Positions 1,489 through 5,757 of a DNA stretch of 5,757 bases are shown here, one piece after another. Both the position numbers and the translations under genes were made by a program. A model generated the notes under the pieces. That model ran no database searches, was not told the origin of the DNA, and worked only from the letters and a program-made list of their open reading frames with translations. The DNA lies in IMG/VR virus record IMGVR_UViG_3300029830_000112. The stretch is one strand, 5' to 3'. Position 1 is the stretch's first letter. Each line of letters begins with the position of its first letter. This DNA comes from a virus.

Positions 1489-3177
1489 TTACAGTTTATA
1501 CAGGCCCGGCACGCTATACAGCGGCATTCTTCGTGTGGTTTTGTTTGCCACTCGCACGGCTCCGAAAAATTGCGGTTCGCTCTGCACAATCAATGTTCTT
1601 GCAATCTCCGCTTTGCCCTCTGCCATCCATTCCTGGCTGAGCGTTGGTACTTTACTGTATATATCAGCGTAGTGCCAGAAGTCCAGTGTACCGGTCGCGT
1701 TGCTTCTCATGAGGCCGGACACCCGGTTTGGCTTCATTCGGTAGTCTGCCCACGCTTCTTGGTAACCGAATGTTTCTTCATCGGTTGCGTCACCGGTCAG
1801 CATGATTTCTTTCTTCTTTACCGGCTGTTCCCCTAAATTTGCGAACTGCGGGACATAGTAGTCCAGCCGGTCGCGTCGGCTCCAGAAGCGTTCAAGGCCC
1901 TGTTGGTAGCTTCTATTGTGCCGTACACATGCGACGCCAATGACAAAGCCGTGTTCTTCAAAGCTTTTAGTAAAAGAGCTCTCTCTGATAGGTGTTACGG
2001 ACACCGCACCTGTTTCACCGATGGGTGTATCGTTTTCCGTCTGTTGGCCGCTGGTCTGCACAATCTGGTTTACGTTGACTTGATATCTGCCGCCTCCCAG
2101 ATATTCCGGGATTTGTACGGTCTTGTCACTGATTGTTACATCCCATAATGCGCGTACTTGTTCGCGGTACCTGCTGCCACCTCTAGTCAGTGCTTCATAG
2201 TACTGTTGTACTGCTACGGCATTTCTCAATTCGTTGATGGTTGCCGCTGTTACGGCACTTAAGTCTGCCGTCATCCGTTCGCCTAATTTTAGTGACCCAT
2301 TGAATGTTCCCAGGACTGCGCGTGCTTTTTCGTTTACGTTTTCATAGTCTTGGGTCATTATTTCGTTTCCTGTGCGGTATAGATATCCTCCTGCTCCTTC
2401 TTTCCAGATTCCGGTATTTTCCAGGTCTGCGATTACTAACGGATTGTCTGTTCCGTCTGCCCAGTAAATCGGTGCATTGCCCGACATTGGTAGGTTAATT
2501 TCCGGCCCACGTTGTGGGTAAGGCATACAGGATGTGAAGTAGTCGTGGTATTTATTTACCGGAAGTAGATTTCCACCCAGTACTGCGTTTTTCAGGTCTT
2601 TTTCCAGCGTTTCTGTTGCTTCTTCGTCGAAATTGTAAGTCACGTCTTTGCTATCGTTTTTCAGAACTGCCGCGTTGTCTACGTTTTCGTCTCTAAAAAA
2701 CTCATTCCAGATTTTTACATATGCTCGGATTGGTAATGCATTGACGGTGAATGGTTTATTGATTTTCGTAGGCACACCCATGTAGTCCAAAATTGACTTT
2801 TCGTTTGGTGCAGGCTTTTCAGTTGTGCCGTTGATTTTGATTTGTGGTACTTTATATGCTATTGTTGGCATCCATGGTGTTTCCTCAACTTCACCCATGA
2901 AATTTTTAAATTTGTCCCACAAGATTCTATTTGGCGTGTAGAAGTAATAGAAGTCAATAAATGCATCATCCATGACCGGATATTTCGGTGTGCTCATGCG
3001 AATGATTGCTGTCGTGTCTACCTGGAAAGTGTCTCCCGGTAATACCTCGTCCACGAAAAATGGAATCAGTTTTCCGGAATCAAATGTTGTTAGAATAGTC
3101 TGGTCGCGATTAAATCTTGTTCGGCTTGCGTGCATTTCCGGGATTTGAAGGAAATGTCTTTCATTATTTCTGTTCAT
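1489..3177 (-). CDS. VP1: Major capsid protein (Microviridae VP1 / F-like jelly-roll capsid protein), 562 aa.
   Basis: Size is typical of gokushovirus VP1. The N-terminus MNRNNERHFLQIPEMHASRTRFNRDQ...VLPGDTFQVDTTAIIRMSTP resembles the conserved F/VP1 N-terminal beta-strand region (compare phiX174 F ...PVIAGDSFEMD...). Strong SD AGAGGAA upstream. It is the longest ORF and lies on the strand shared by all genes. Confidence 0.85.
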   Translation of the reverse strand: MNRNNERHFLQIPEMHASRTRFNRDQTILTTFDSGKLIPFFVDEVLPGDTFQVDTTAIIRMSTPKYPVMDDAFIDFYYFYTPNRILWDKFKNFMGEVEETPWMPTIAYKVPQIKINGTTEKPAPNEKSILDYMGVPTKINKPFTVNALPIRAYVKIWNEFFRDENVDNAAVLKNDSKDVTYNFDEEATETLEKDLKNAVLGGNLLPVNKYHDYFTSCMPYPQRGPEINLPMSGNAPIYWADGTDNPLVIADLENTGIWKEGAGGYLYRTGNEIMTQDYENVNEKARAVLGTFNGSLKLGERMTADLSAVTAATINELRNAVAVQQYYEALTRGGSRYREQVRALWDVTISDKTVQIPEYLGGGRYQVNVNQIVQTSGQQTENDTPIGETGAVSVTPIRESSFTKSFEEHGFVIGVACVRHNRSYQQGLERFWSRRDRLDYYVPQFANLGEQPVKKKEIMLTGDATDEETFGYQEAWADYRMKPNRVSGLMRSNATGTLDFWHYADIYSKVPTLSQEWMAEGKAEIARTLIVQSEPQFFGAVRVANKTTRRMPLYSVPGLYKL

Positions 3178-3574
3178 TTGCTTCCTCTTTCTGCACCTTT
3201 TCCTGTGCGGCTTCCTGTGCCTTTTTCAGCTCTTCCAGCTTCATGGCTTTTACCTGTGCCGTTGCCATCATCTGGTGATACTCGTGCACGTTCTGCGGCC
3301 ATCCGGTAATGTCCGTGATTGGCATTTCTTCTTTGGATAGTGCTCCCTGTGACAGACTTGCCATAAAGGCCGGGTCGAAACTTGCTTTCCTGACAATGTT
3401 CTTGATGTCACATTCGTCTGCATAGCTTTCAATTTCGGCCTGCACGTCGATGCTTTCGGTTTCCTGCAAGTACTCCTTGCCGTCCTTGTCCTTTGCCCAG
3501 ACGTATTGTTTTCGTTCGTTTTTGCCTGGTTCGGAAAAGAGGGGCTTTCGCCCCTCCTCATATCGTTTATTCAT
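3164..3574 (-). CDS. VP3-like putative internal scaffolding protein (136 aa, acidic N-terminal half, Lys/Glu-rich helical C-terminus). The assignment is by position and composition only.
   Basis: ATG at 3572-3574 with SD GGGAGGG 8 nt upstream. Its stop overlaps the VP1 start by 14 nt (ATGAACAGAAATAA), suggesting translational coupling with the capsid gene. The C-terminus (ATAQVKAMKLEELKKAQEAAQEKVQKEEANEQK) is predicted helical, like microvirus scaffold proteins. Confidence 0.4.
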   Translation of the reverse strand: MNKRYEEGRKPLFSEPGKNERKQYVWAKDKDGKEYLQETESIDVQAEIESYADECDIKNIVRKASFDPAFMASLSQGALSKEEMPITDITGWPQNVHEYHQMMATAQVKAMKLEELKKAQEAAQEKVQKEEANEQK

Positions 3575-3806
3575 GCGGCTTGCCCTCCCATACTTTTTCC
3601 GCGTCGTTCTGGAAGGTTCCTAGTTCGTCTTCAAAGTTGGCCAATTTGAACCCGGTGTAGTCCTGCGGACTTTGGCCGATAAAGGTTTTTTCGTCCTTTG
3701 CCATTACATCGCACATTCGCGCAAACGTTGCGTTATTCTTGCTCTCGCCAACCCATGCATAGCATTTTGCTACTCTGTCCCAGATACCGTAATACGAATG
3801 AATCAT
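3567..3806 (-). CDS. Hypothetical protein (79 aa), possibly VP5-like or another morphogenesis/accessory protein.
   Basis: ATG start at 3804-3806 with SD AAAGGA 8 nt upstream. Its TAA stop overlaps the ATG of the downstream 136-aa ORF (ATGAATAA). Same strand and operon organisation as the structural genes. Confidence 0.5.
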   Translation of the reverse strand: MIHSYYGIWDRVAKCYAWVGESKNNATFARMCDVMAKDEKTFIGQSPQDYTGFKLANFEDELGTFQNDAEKVWEGKPHE

Positions 3807-3822: not shown

Positions 3823-3924
3823 TTACAGTCGGATGCCTCCGCGCATGGGCTTCTGACTTAGGTTGATACTCTTTGTTTTTCGTGCGGTGACGTTGAACAT
3901 GTGTTTATCTTTTCGCATATTCAT
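3823..3924 (-). CDS. Possible small basic peptide (33 aa, MNMRKDKHMFNVTARKTKSINLSQKPMRGGIRL). Candidate J-like / ORF8-like DNA-binding packaging protein.
   Basis: Found by manual translation of the 120-nt gap between the 75-aa and 79-aa ORFs. It holds 9 Lys/Arg in 33 aa, with the ATG 4 nt after the upstream stop. Only a weak purine-rich stretch lies upstream, and it is too short for the ORF track. Confidence 0.25.
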   Translation of the reverse strand: MNMRKDKHMFNVTARKTKSINLSQKPMRGGIRL

Positions 3925-3928
3925 TTTC

Positions 3929-4156
3929 TTACGATATGCCATTGTAGAATCCCCTTCTGATAAGTTCAAGTTCTATTGCGTTTGTAAAGCTCTTTAAGTG
4001 CCAGATTTCGTCTAGCATCTTCTTTGCGGTTTCTATGTCCGCTATCTTGCGCAAGAGCCTATATTGCGCGTTGATTTCTTTGTATTTTTTTTCAAGTAGT
4101 TCAGACAATTCTTTTTCGGTCTGGTCTCTTACGTTCCAGCTTTTGTGCAGGTCCAT
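3929..4156 (-). CDS. Hypothetical protein (75 aa), predicted helical / coiled-coil-like.
   Basis: ATG at 4154-4156 preceded by SD AAGGAG at 8-nt spacing. The sequence MDLHKSWNVRDQTEKELSELLEKKYKEINAQYRLLRKIADIETAKKMLDEIWHLK carries charged heptad-like periodicity. Same strand as all other genes. Confidence 0.5.
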   Translation of the reverse strand: MDLHKSWNVRDQTEKELSELLEKKYKEINAQYRLLRKIADIETAKKMLDEIWHLKSFTNAIELELIRRGFYNGIS

Positions 4157-4281
4157 GGTTGTTACTCCTTCTCATTCGTCGCGTCCTTCAGCGCGTGATA
4201 GATTTCATCGAGCCGGTCTAGGATTTGCAGCATAATGTCGATTGCCTTCTTGACGTCCTTAACGTTGATAAGTGCTATGGT

Positions 4282-4674
4282 TTATACCCCCTTTCTGTAC
4301 TTGCTGTTGCGAGTGTCAAAGTGCACCCACGATTTATAGACGATGATGCCGCAAGAGTTTGGCGCCAGCTTGTCAAGCTCTTTTGCAACCTCCTTTGGCG
4401 TCATGTCTTTCACGGTGATATCGGCCGCCATGCCGCGCGTGTGGTAGCTGTATTTTGCTCCACCTACTTTTTTGTTATGCTCTGGCGTTCTATATCCGCT
4501 TGTTACGATTACTGGCTTTTTAATTGTCTCGCGTAGGATGTCTAACAGGATTGCTAGACACTCGTCTACAAAGACAATTGGTGACCCATCTTTACACGCG
4601 AATTCTTTTACTTTGAAGTGTTTTGTGATTTTGACGTCTGCTTGTTCGTCTAATACATATGCTTTAATTTCCAT
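4282..4674 (-). CDS. Peptidase M15 (LAS-family zinc D-Ala-D-Ala carboxypeptidase / L-Ala-D-Glu peptidase fold, Peptidase_M15_3-like), 130 aa. Likely cell-wall hydrolase / endolysin.
   Basis: The translation contains the LAS-family zinc-binding signature in the canonical order and spacing: KEFACKDGS...SGYRTPEHNKKVGGAKYSYHTRGMAADI...SWVHFDTR (SxHxxGxAxD plus a terminal WVHxD His). ATG at 4672-4674 with SD AGGTGA 5 nt upstream. A sigma70-like promoter lies directly upstream. Confidence 0.75.
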   Translation of the reverse strand: MEIKAYVLDEQADVKITKHFKVKEFACKDGSPIVFVDECLAILLDILRETIKKPVIVTSGYRTPEHNKKVGGAKYSYHTRGMAADITVKDMTPKEVAKELDKLAPNSCGIIVYKSWVHFDTRNSKYRKGV

Positions 4675-4705
4675 GGCGATTCACCTTTTTTTGTATTCTA
4701 TCGGT

Positions 4706-4734
4706 ATTGTATCATTCAATCTCCGAATTTTCAA
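4706..4734 (-). promoter_or_regulatory. Sigma70-like promoter for the peptidase/accessory-gene module: -35 TTGAAA (4729-4734), 17-nt spacer, -10 TACAAT (4706-4711), read on the minus strand.
   Basis: TTGAAA-N17-TACAAT (5/6 and 5/6 matches to consensus, optimal spacing). It lies about 30 nt upstream of the peptidase ATG, within the intergenic region. Confidence 0.45.
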
Positions 4735-4781
4735 GGGTTGCGTTAGCAACTTTTGAAATTTCGGTGATTTCGCCGTTAGGC

Positions 4782-4946
4782 GTTTTCAACAGTTTCCACA
4801 TAGTTTTCAACTTTTCCACATTGTTAAACTTTATCACAATAGAGTATTTTAACAATTCAACAAGTTTTTAACATTTCTTTTAACAATAGTTTCTTTCATA
4901 AAGAAACGTTATTGTGTTATTTTTTAATGGTTTTCAACTTTTCAAC
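4782..4946. repeat. AT-rich iteron region. It holds a 21-bp tandem direct repeat (4782-4802 gttttcaacagtttccacata; 4803-4823 gttttcaacttttccacattg). It holds three same-orientation DnaA-box-like 9-mers (4792-4800 GTTTCCACA, 4812-4820 TTTTCCACA, 4830-4838 TTTATCACA). It holds TTTTCAAC x4 (4783, 4804, 4931, 4939) and TTTTAACA x3 (4847, 4866, 4878). It also holds an 8-bp-stem hairpin gtttctttcataaagaaac (4889-4907).
   Basis: Repeats read directly from the sequence. TTTTCCACA fits the relaxed DnaA box consensus TTWTNCACA exactly, and the other two have one mismatch each. Confidence 0.6.
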
Positions 4947-4980
4947 TACCTCTACTACTACGACTACAACAAGTTAATAA

Positions 4981-5032
4981 ATATATGCGCGTGCGTGCGT
5001 GCGCGTCTACGTGCGCGTATGCGCGCGCATAC
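4981..5032. repeat. Alternating purine-pyrimidine (Z-DNA-prone) tract: atatatgcgcgtgcgtgcgtgcgcgt-ct-acgtgcgcgtatgcgcgcgcatac, including the perfect 16-bp palindrome gtatgcgcgcgcatac (5017-5032).
   Basis: 26 nt of perfect Pu/Py alternation, a 2-nt break, then 24 nt of perfect alternation. (GCGT)n-like composition. The palindrome was verified by reverse complement. Confidence 0.8.
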
Positions 5033-5036
5033 CTTT

Positions 5037-5155
5037 GAGCGCTTTAGCGCGAACCGGCGTCCGCGCGATTTCAGCGCGGTCAGCGGCTGATCAGTCAGCC
5101 GCGACGCCGTGCCAATAGGGGTCCGGGGACGCGAGCGGAACGCGGCCCCGGGATA
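5037..5155. other. GC-rich island (about 70% GC by eye versus about 43% for the genome) made of consecutive stem-loops. These are gcgc-ttta-gcgc (5042-5053); ccgcgc-gatttca-gcgcgg (5061-5079); gcggctga-tcag-tcagccgc (5083-5102, with the embedded palindrome ctgatcag); and the compound hairpin tccgggg-a-cgcg-agcggaa-cgcg-g-ccccgga (5122-5152). Candidate complementary-strand (ssDNA to dsDNA) origin or another structured cis element.
   Basis: Inverted repeats verified by reverse complementation. The compositional contrast with flanking AT-rich DNA is obvious by eye. Confidence 0.5.
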
Positions 5156-5207
5156 TTGTTTAATTTCAATCACTGCCTAGACTGATACATGGAGCCTTTA
5201 AACGGCT

Positions 5208-5242
5208 CTAGCCCAGTACCTACTTGATAGGTACTGGGCTAG
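5208..5242. other. Perfect 15-bp hairpin ctagcccagtaccta-cttga-taggtactgggctag, 15 nt downstream of the VP4 stop. Candidate rolling-circle origin (Rep nick site in the loop) or transcript-end structure.
   Basis: Perfect 15/15 inverted repeat with a 5-nt loop. A second smaller hairpin gagcc-tttaaac-ggctc (5192-5208) abuts it. The loop plus flank on the displayed strand reads ACTTGATA, the same 8-mer as the phiX174 origin core caACTTGATAttaata. Confidence 0.5.
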
Positions 5243-5256
5243 GTGACACCAAAATC

Positions 5257-5757
5257 TTATAAACCGCCTTTTTGGAGCTTTACAGACTTTTTGATAACTC
5301 TTTCTTTTGTCTTTAAGTCCTCTTCAAAATCTGCATTTTCATACTTTAGTCGGTTTTGTTCGATTACTGCTTTCTGTCGGTTCCTCTTGATTCTCCATAA
5401 TCGTTCTGGGTTTTCTGCTTCCATCATTTTTTCGTAATATCGCGGAATTTGTGCTTGTTTTCCGTTGGTGCATTGAATATAGCCTTTTCGCCATATTTCT
5501 TCTTTGTGCTCTTGATAGTAGGAATCGCCAAGTCCCGGTTTTAGGCTCATACATGCAAATGGTTTTTGCTGGCCTAGCTCGTAGTATTGGTTAGCTTTTT
5601 TTCCGTCTATTTCGTACATCTTTTTTGTGACGTACCCCGCAACATATCTATAGGTTTCGGGTGTTGCCTGTGCTATCTGGATTTGACCCATTCCCCATAG
5701 ATTGCACATCCATTCACTTGTATAATATCCGTTATGCCTTATTTTATAGATTTGCTT
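5257..5757 (-). CDS. VP4: Replication initiation protein VP4, C-terminal portion (contains the catalytic Tyr motif III). Same CDS as feature 1..599, continued across the window edge.
   Basis: ORF-track 150-aa ORF at 5257..5709 contains YVAGYVTKK (YxxxYxxKK, 5620-5646), the twin-tyrosine catalytic motif of phiX174-A/VP4-type Reps. The reading frame stays open upstream through 5757, equal to position 77, into 78-599. TAA stop at 5257-5259. Confidence 0.85.
   Translation of the reverse strand, partial: KQIYKIRHNGYYTSEWMCNLWGMGQIQIAQATPETYRYVAGYVTKKMYEIDGKKANQYYELGQQKPFACMSLKPGLGDSYYQEHKEEIWRKGYIQCTNGKQAQIPRYYEKMMEAENPERLWRIKRNRQKAVIEQNRLKYENADFEEDLKTKERVIKKSVKLQKGGL
5681..5757. repeat. Second copy of the 77-nt terminal redundancy (same sequence as 1-77).
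   Basis: Exact 77/77 identity with 1-77. Confidence 0.95.

Follow-up and report, generated by a model that had tools for sequence, protein, structure and literature searches.

How would a wall-degrading enzyme encoded by a microvirus reach the peptidoglycan (PG) when no holin or export signal accompanies it? The question is raised by IMG/VR record IMGVR_UViG_3300029830_000112, a stretch of 5,757 nucleotides (nt) that we refer to, at its full length, as the window. A first-pass annotation, made from the letters alone, had singled out a 130-amino-acid (aa) open reading frame (ORF) at positions 4282-4674 and had taken the product for a microviral zinc peptidase of the LAS/M15 group that acts on the cell wall. 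The ORF exists, on the minus strand, and the assignment was right. From comparison with related sequences, we consider it likely that it encodes a functional, Zn-dependent, single-domain M15A peptidase that was acquired by an ancestor of the clade from the lysis cassette of a Clostridia phage or prophage and that would serve the virus as an accessory endolysin. The question of wall access, which that annotation had posed, is a real one, and the comparison reported here sharpens it.

The peptidase ORF runs from an ATG start to a TAA stop and encodes a single-domain protein of 14.7 kDa with a pI of 9.2. Searching it against profiles, as the annotation had proposed, gave a match to Pfam Peptidase_M15_3 (PF08291; MEROPS M15A) with 77.9 bits against a gathering threshold of 23.2 (E=7.6e-22), covering profile positions 2-108 of 108; the absence of any M15 or LAS match, which the annotation had named as grounds for dropping the idea, was thus not what we observed. 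The protein also scored weakly on the related M15_2/DUF882 and matched PHROG 894, labelled "endolysin," at E=9.5e-44. All three parts of the quoted signature are present, namely SGYR at residues 59-62, SYHTRGMAAD at residues 76-85 and WVHFD at residues 116-120. The SxHxxGxAxD motif (as defined in PMC13461873) corresponds to S76...H78...G81...A83...D85 and contains the first two predicted Zn ligands, H78 and D85. The WxH motif corresponds to W116-V-H118, with H118 as the third predicted ligand and the acid D120 nearby.

Similar single-domain enzymes are known from other phages. The M15A peptidase of Burkholderia phage ST79, with active site H77/D84/H119/W117 (PMC5025407), and LysPM1 of a Proteus phage, a Zn-dependent enzyme with H63/D70/H104, R47, F102 and D106 (PMC13461873), are proteins of 116-150 aa that have the same Pfam domain, motifs, Zn triad, Arg and Asp; the likeness rests on motifs, Pfam domain and architecture. 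For these relatives from double-stranded DNA (dsDNA) phages, Zn-dependent PG hydrolysis was shown (PMC13461873, PMC5025407). Their carriers are, however, dsDNA phages of Gram-negative hosts with holin and spanin genes, whereas the window represents a 5.7-kb single-stranded DNA (ssDNA) phage without a holin and with the nearest cellular relatives of its peptidase in Clostridia.

A single-sequence phmmer search of the PDB with the peptidase gave no match, and a profile of 46 homologues matched PDB entry 1LBU, the Zn D-Ala-D-Ala carboxypeptidase of Streptomyces albus G and type enzyme of M15A, at E=1.1e-5. In this alignment, H78 and D85 fall on H154 and D161. R62 of SGYR aligns with GFR(138)S of 1LBU and is the predicted substrate-carboxylate Arg, comparable to R138. 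An AlphaFold2 model of the peptidase has the central antiparallel sheet and flanking helices of the LAS/Hedgehog-DD-peptidase fold as predicted elements; its top structural neighbour is again 1LBU, a muramoyl-pentapeptide carboxypeptidase, and VanX and VanY are also among the neighbours of the model. Unlike the microviral protein, the Streptomyces enzyme is secreted, has 213 aa and carries an extra N-terminal PG-binding domain, and at a sequence identity of only 18% substrate specificity need not carry over. M15A includes DD-carboxy- and endopeptidases, and structurally related phage enzymes are L-Ala-D-Glu peptidases.

We then counted residue conservation in 139 microviral and 51 bacterial homologues. 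S59, R62, H78 and D85 were invariant in all of them; H118 was present in 138/139 microviral and 51/51 bacterial homologues and D120 in 139/139 and 50/51, respectively, which makes the catalytic residues near-invariant in these 190 sequences. The ratio of nonsynonymous to synonymous divergence (Ka/Ks) of the peptidase against its closest relatives was 0.10-0.16, with synonymous sites near saturation (median synonymous difference, pS, 0.72). The peptidase gene is intact and under strong purifying selection. A gene that was acquired horizontally and that is absent from many gokushoviruses might be pictured as a hitch-hiking or decaying passenger, functionless in the virus. The Ka/Ks of about 0.1 and a catalytic set that is essentially invariant in 139 microviral copies effectively refute such a passenger; the gene moreover keeps a fixed position and a conserved promoter and Shine-Dalgarno (SD) motif in a 5.7-kb genome under strong size constraint, and we regard the idea as hardly credible.

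The annotation had implied that a peptidase is a rarity in a microvirus. This did not hold up: an M15 peptidase in a gut gokushovirus has been known since 2012, and the gene belongs to a known class and is not a new kind of element. Roux et al. described M15_3 peptidases in 11 Microviridae associated with humans (5 of them Gokushovirinae, the other 6 Alpavirinae), showed that the genes had been acquired horizontally, proposed Firmicutes-type phages as the source, placed the gokushoviral copies in a group with Faecalibacterium and further Clostridiales, pointed out that the bacterial homologues have holins next to them and suggested an endolysin role (PMC3394797). Later studies treated peptidases as recurrent accessory lysis genes of microviruses and described recombinational exchange of a peptidase between distant families (PMC9239249, PMC11499846), and the eLife study of gokushovirus EC6098 mentions microviral peptidases in passing (PMC7062461). 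Among GenBank phage records we found 20, all from Microviridae or gokushoviruses, with ORFs 60-70% identical to the peptidase, many of them labelled "peptidase M15" or "similar to peptidase." In a collection of 5.8 billion proteins, 1,402 clusters matched it at E<=1e-5; the best 120 of these (68-98% identity) all lie on contigs of at most about 10 kb, and all but one on contigs of at most about 6 kb. The top match, at 98%, is nr entry DAW67629.1, "MAG TPA: peptidase [Microviridae sp.]" (P0001 in our set), and IMG/VR holds at least 251 relatives.

The comparison with other M15-carrying Microviridae that the annotation had recommended thus places the window among close kin. The M15_3 peptidases of gut Gokushovirinae (KX513877, KX513868, KT264791-3, MG945xxx, DAW67629.1) belong to the same family, have about 130 aa and occupy the same slot after the replication initiator gene VP4 on the same backbone, in GenBank as in the IMG/VR relatives. 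The peptidase of the window is 60-70% identical to the GenBank entries and 98% identical to DAW67629.1, and it has in common with them the proposed role and the affinity to Faecalibacterium and Clostridiales. Nothing essential differs between the window virus and these gut gokushoviruses; it represents a further strain or species within their clade, and its value to the catalogue, as one more gut gokushovirus with a known M15_3 peptidase, is small. Gokushoviruses are among the most abundant ssDNA phages of the gut.

The peptidase protein is only 63% identical to that of KX513877 and 51% identical to that of KT264792, as against 84-85% nt identity over about three quarters of those genomes. Since the peptidase is more divergent than the genome in which it lies, this difference suggests that closely related backbones have exchanged peptidase alleles, which agrees with the recombination that Kirchberger et al. 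2022 described.

Where the gene came from is indicated by its bacterial relatives. In one-per-species bacterial genomes we found 57 homologues with 33-50% identity (mostly 40-49%), almost all from Clostridia (Lachnospiraceae, Oscillospiraceae, Faecalibacterium, Lacrimispora) and a few from Bacteroidales or other groups. The best non-microviral phage match was a protein of Faecalibacterium phage Aster with 137 aa and 47% identity. This protein, Aster orf20, and the Clostridia prophage homologues are single-domain proteins with 40-49% full-length identity to the peptidase and the same active site, and they lie in lysis cassettes with holin-like transmembrane (TM) proteins, whereas the microviral copies came without them.

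This difference was quantified with a scan for TM-like small ORFs of at least 25 aa, using a 19-residue Kyte-Doolittle (KD) window with at most 1 charge, in the three coding-strand frames of the circularised genome. No such ORF was found on the coding strand of the window, and a canonical holin-endolysin cassette is therefore not what this genome presents. In 151 non-redundant related genomes, examined at a common threshold, TM-like small ORFs were absent from 146, and 5/151 had any. As a positive control, the same scan was applied to long bacterial or prophage loci: in 28 of 44, a TM-bearing small ORF lies no more than 1.5 kb from the homologous peptidase, and several such ORFs abut it. In phage Aster the scan found the TM proteins orf22 and orf23 after the peptidase orf20. 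Because the homologues adjoin TM proteins in the donors and the TM ORF is missing in 146/151 microviruses, the peptidase gene appears to have been taken from holin-endolysin cassettes of dsDNA phages or prophages of Clostridia, essentially always without the holin.

Among the five genomes with a TM-like ORF, L023 is the sole persuasive case. At positions 2775-2942 of that genome, a 55-aa protein (MQSRKEVKNMETLAAVGIIIAIIGMTAATASLIILMVQMVKDMKGESKKWKSNHM) with one TM segment and a highly charged C terminus overlaps the peptidase start by about 20 nt. It is holin-like in layout, with only a faint PHROG holin match (E=0.5), and may have survived from the lysis cassette of the donor. A small protein with an N-terminal TM segment and a coiled coil (…TDTKLEELTREVREHNNFA…) lies by homologous peptidases at 3232-3459 of locus L232, where it is Aster orf22, and at 7469-7756 of L122, from a Clostridia metagenome-assembled genome (MAG); such proteins probably make up a family of holins in phages of Clostridia.

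The donor relationship points to Gram-positive Clostridia as the probable host. The findings thereby support a Gram-positive (Clostridia) host for a microvirus clade and repeat the suggestion of 2012 with far more data. To our knowledge there is no cultured member of this clade and no cultured gokushovirus with a Gram-positive (Clostridia) host. Strong SD motifs and extended -10 promoters would also fit Bacillota, albeit as weak evidence. Contigs of 3-6 kb that are binned in Clostridia MAGs were considered as microviruses that might link the host and were rejected, as they contained no homologues of VP1, VP2 or VP4 of this virus.

The peptidase itself carries no sign of export. Neither a signal peptide nor a signal-arrest-release (SAR) domain was found on it; its N terminus, MEIKAYVLDEQADVKITKHF, is acidic and hydrophilic, and the only 19-mer with a KD value above 1.5 is the charged core helix at residues 33-51, a predicted helix inside the fold. 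Together with the coding-strand TM scan, this bears out the remark of the annotation that the peptidase has no obvious signal peptide, holin or spanin. Longer homologues of 142-199 aa were considered as forms with a signal peptide and rejected, since their extra length comes from in-frame extension upstream at gene calling, and the added parts are hydrophilic or basic, with no hydrophobic segment. The only TM-like stretch encoded in the genome is a Gly/Ala-rich hydrophobic segment at the N terminus of the DNA pilot protein VP2 (IMSMIGAGANAIGSIAGAV; KD 1.49). Residues 6-33 of VP2 are conserved and have a repeated small-xxx-small spacing (IMSMIGAGANAIGSIAGAVKNIGGAFGG) that is glycine-zipper-like.

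In the mechanism that we favour, the enzyme would be synthesised alongside the structural proteins in the cytoplasm, where it would do no harm. It would gain access to the wall only once a lysis function of the backbone, which peptidase-less gokushoviruses must share, breaches the cytoplasmic membrane; it would then cut stem-peptide or cross-link bonds and thereby speed or complete lysis of a thick-walled, probably Clostridia, host. Candidates for the membrane-breaching agent would be the glycine-zipper-like N terminus of VP2 and the amphipathic microprotein encoded by orf38, the gene next to the peptidase. The backbone must have a lysis function of its own because eight relatives without this peptidase exist and because gokushovirus EC6098, which has no peptidase at all, lyses E. 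coli (PMC7062461).

Several points weigh against this mechanism. There is no holin, signal peptide or SAR domain in the window and no TM ORF in 146/151 relatives; with no export partner found, the step in which the enzyme reaches the wall is left without an agent. A cell-wall-binding domain is usual in the endolysins of phages that infect Gram-positive hosts; the peptidase has none, though the enzyme of phage Aster is also without one. The AlphaFold2 model is of moderate quality, with a predicted local distance difference test (pLDDT) score below 50 for the H78 loop, and the host assignment derives solely from the taxonomy of the homologues, that is, of the gene donors. Finally, in the literature that we searched we found no microviral M15 peptidase that had been tested biochemically or genetically, and no answer to how such an enzyme reaches the wall.

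The absence of a membrane protein would be explained directly if the peptidase never had to leave the cytoplasm. It might destroy UDP-MurNAc-pentapeptide or inner-leaflet lipid II there, so that synthesis of the wall fails and growing cells lyse without a holin, as an "enzymatic amurin" analogous to protein E of phiX174. Protein E and other amurins likewise allow small phages to lyse their hosts without a holin-endolysin pair; protein E is, however, a small membrane-bound MraY inhibitor with no wall-degrading activity, and no candidate for a TM lysis protein of this type was found in the three coding-strand frames of the circularised window. Cytoplasmic action would account for a window and 146/151 relatives that are TM-less while the prophage homologues keep their holins, and, if true, for repeated capture without a holin, leaving about 97% of 151 genomes without a membrane protein. 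M15 enzymes VanX and VanY act on cytoplasmic precursors that end in D-Ala-D-Ala, and it fits that VanX and VanY are structural neighbours of the peptidase and that its closest structure, 1LBU, is a muramoyl-pentapeptide carboxypeptidase. Nevertheless, the peptidase has about 45% identity and all active-site residues in common with homologues in classical holin-endolysin cassettes, and we saw no sequence sign of altered specificity. L023 moreover keeps a holin-like ORF beside the same peptidase, and the characterised single-domain M15_3 enzymes degrade sacculi (PMC13461873, PMC5025407). We therefore regard cytoplasmic action on precursors as improbable.

The lack of an export signal would also be compatible with action from outside, a possibility raised in the annotation. 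Packaged in or on the virion, the peptidase might open the PG locally at DNA delivery, and the thick Gram-positive wall would indeed be a barrier to a tail-less particle of 25-30 nm. There is hardly any room to spare inside a T=1 gokushovirus capsid, though, and the peptidase is a free-standing globular protein of 14.7 kDa with no fusion or similarity to structural proteins. Its dsDNA-phage homologues lie in lysis cassettes and not in structural modules, and it is dispensable in relatives with the same VP1/VP2 architecture. A role in entry is thus very doubtful.

A further explanation is that a canonical holin exists and was missed, either on the complementary strand, or below 25 aa, or as a weakly hydrophobic protein such as orf38 or the adjacent orf75 acting as an unconventional partner. 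In most genomes the strand opposite the peptidase gene does hold long, hydrophobic ORFs, and Roux et al. noted one complementary-strand ORF beside a microviral peptidase (PMC3394797). The complementary (plus) strand is, however, full of long hydrophobic ORFs genome-wide, for example at 4225-4536 and 4472-4756; these are a by-product of a strongly T-rich plus strand (AT skew -0.2 to -0.4) and are no evidence of genes. ORF openness does not single out a holin on the complementary strand, since composition makes all antisense frames long and hydrophobic. Nor does the peptidase gene, with its synonymous divergence close to saturation, give any sign of overlapping antisense constraint. As for the small neighbours, strong conservation, amphipathic character and translational coupling to the peptidase would suit orf38 as a partner; yet neither orf38 nor orf75 has a TM segment or a family match, and orf38 occurs in peptidase-less relatives and never beside bacterial homologues. 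A missed holin is therefore unlikely in our view.

The comparison leaves a sharper lysis question than before: the holin is present in the Clostridia donor cassettes and nearly absent from the recipient microviruses, with L023 as the exception, and the enzyme is still under selection. The system thus offers a clean test of holin-independent endolysin use.

Directly downstream of the peptidase, on the minus strand at 4162-4278, lies orf38. We found it across genomes with a degenerate DNA pattern scan; its consensus, MALISIKDVKQAIRIMMQILEKLDEIYHALHDSINEKEKE, has 38-42 aa (opening MALISIKDVKQAIRIMMQILEKLDEIYHALHD...) and was present in 73/79 genomes. The product has no TM segment and is predicted to form an amphipathic helix, with a hydrophobic moment of about 2.1. 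In the KLDEIYHAL stretch, compared in 74 genomes, codon positions 1 and 2 are invariant except for a C/T exchange at the first base of Leu and an Ala/Val change, and third positions are free. Free third positions combined with fixed first and second positions indicate that orf38 is a real coding gene under purifying selection. No PHROG match of note was obtained for it.

The start of orf38 lies at or overlaps the peptidase stop in relatives and is one codon past the stop in the window, and its SD motif, AAGGGGGT, is formed by the conserved C-terminal codons RKGV of the peptidase. In the window and in its relative L001 the start codon is ATA (4278-4276), as compared to ATG in L002, L233 and most relatives; in L233, a 98% relative, orf38 has its ATG and is a called gene of 42 aa. 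In this lineage orf38 is in frame directly behind the TAA stop of the peptidase. The ATA might be a rare non-canonical start, an internal ATG at 4233 that would give a 23-aa product might be used instead, or the window might carry a loss-of-function variant; each of these is possible.

We also considered orf38 as a peptidase-specific partner, such as a chaperone or a holin substitute. This idea was weakened by its distribution: orf38 was absent from 57/57 bacterial or prophage loci with a homologous peptidase, and it was kept in 8 complete genomes that are more distant, at about 45% identity in VP1, that lack this peptidase and in which unrelated small ORFs fill the interval between VP4 and orf38. 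Its presence in peptidase-less relatives indicates that orf38 is a backbone gene of the clade.

The annotation had also proposed the 75-aa and 79-aa neighbours of the peptidase as candidates to test for holin-like behaviour. Neither looks membrane-active, and both were rejected as holins. The 79-aa protein is the DNA-binding protein VP5/ORF5 (3567-3806, minus strand; PF20577, phrog_1670). The 75-aa protein, orf75 (3929-4156, minus strand), is hydrophilic and helical, not membrane-like and without a family match, and it is kept in 62/79 relatives.

Expression signals precede the peptidase. The good SD noted in the annotation was confirmed as AAAGGTGA at 4681-4688 on the minus strand, 6 nt from the ATG, and an SD-like motif precedes the peptidase in 126/142 relatives. 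Further upstream (4734-4706, minus strand), a promoter-like site of the sigma-70/sigma-A type, TTGAAA-17-TACAAT with an extended -10 TG, matches the consensus at 10/12 positions. Such sites occur in the window alone at chance level (3 found versus 3.4 in shuffles); a match of at least 10/12 at the same position was seen in 64/142 relatives, several with 11-12/12, versus about 0.3 in shuffled upstream regions, counts that come from related genomes and express conservation, not independent recurrence. The median distance from the -35 start to the peptidase ATG is 53 nt, a constant position inside otherwise divergent sequence.

The annotation had credited the peptidase with a sigma70-like promoter of its own. 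By this comparison the site is convincing, but it is better seen as heading the late gene string than as private to the peptidase. No terminator-like site was found downstream of the peptidase on the coding strand, and the next ORF is translationally coupled to it, which is why the full string PEP-orf38-orf75-ORF8-VP5-VP3-VP1..., in which the peptidase (PEP) comes first, is most likely under the control of this promoter.

The remaining features are those of a complete gokushovirus genome. The first and last 77 nt of the window are identical (1-77 = 5681-5757); this exact direct repeat is the assembly overlap of a circular genome, with a unit of 5,680 nt. Owing to this terminal redundancy, the VP4/Rep gene only looks split: in the linear window it appears as a partial replication-initiator ORF at 5257-5709 (phrog_942), and once the 77-nt repeat is removed it is an intact minus-strand ORF of 340 aa that starts at 599 and continues through the junction to 5257. 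The N-terminal part thus occupies 1-599, with the start codon at 599, and the C-terminal part 5257-5680 (phrog_942; PF23343 on the 340-aa homologue).

VP2 follows at 596-1450 (phrog_8742, E=2e-123), the major capsid protein VP1 at 1489-3177 (Phage_F, PF02305, E=9e-138) and the internal scaffolding protein VP3 at 3164-3574 (Chlamy_scaf, PF09675), all on the minus strand. Between VP5 and orf75, also on the minus strand, a small, very basic ORF8-like protein (pI 11.1) is encoded at 3823-3969; it matches phrog_10695 over residues 10-48 and is found in 78/79 relatives. Its true start is probably the internal ATG at 3942, which gives 39 aa.

According to the ORF list and the family searches, every convincing gene lies on the minus strand. 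VP1, VP2, VP4, a scaffold VP3 of Chlamydia-phage type, VP5/ORF5, a circular genome of about 4.5-6 kb and a single coding strand are the hallmarks of gokushoviruses, and all were found. Closest among the GenBank records were "Human gut gokushovirus" KX513877, with 84% nt identity across 74% of the genome, and "Gokushovirus WZ-2015a" KT264792. Taken together, gene set, circularity and nearest genomes identify the window as a complete gokushovirus genome from a human or animal gut.

Gene order was surveyed in the first 79 microvirus-sized genomes of the at least 251 IMG/VR relatives. The commonest order, VP1 > VP2 > VP4 > PEP > orf38 > orf75 > ORF8 > VP5 > VP3, occurred in 53/79, a figure that includes 10 genomes in which an additional orf47 match precedes the peptidase. 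In 79/79, the peptidase comes immediately after VP4, or after VP4 and an orf47 match. In the window, the 47-aa ORF at 4712-4855 is probably not a gene, as it was matched in only 12/79 relatives and overlaps repeated DNA motifs.

A non-coding region of 582 nt (4675-5256, minus strand) separates the VP4 stop from the peptidase start and contains a hairpin, a palindrome and A/T-rich repeats. A Rfam scan of the whole window returned no family at threshold and only sub-threshold miRNA-like matches on the GC-rich palindrome. This imperfect 28-nt palindrome of GCGT/GCGC repeats (4979-5036) lies in a GC-rich island at about 4990-5180 amid A/T-rich intergenic DNA, and a 69-aa Arg-rich ORF across the GC-rich block (4964-5173) had no family match.

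The hairpin, a perfect 15-bp inverted repeat with a 5-nt loop (5208-5242), begins 15 nt past the VP4 stop and has no T-run after it; it might act as a terminator or serve as a signal for replication or packaging. On its coding strand, the A/T-rich block at 4728-4946 has motifs of the type GTTGAAAA(C)/GTGGAAA in repeated copies (families D1-D3 and D6), and the block ends with the promoter's -35 element; these repeats could be regulator-binding or iteron-like sites.

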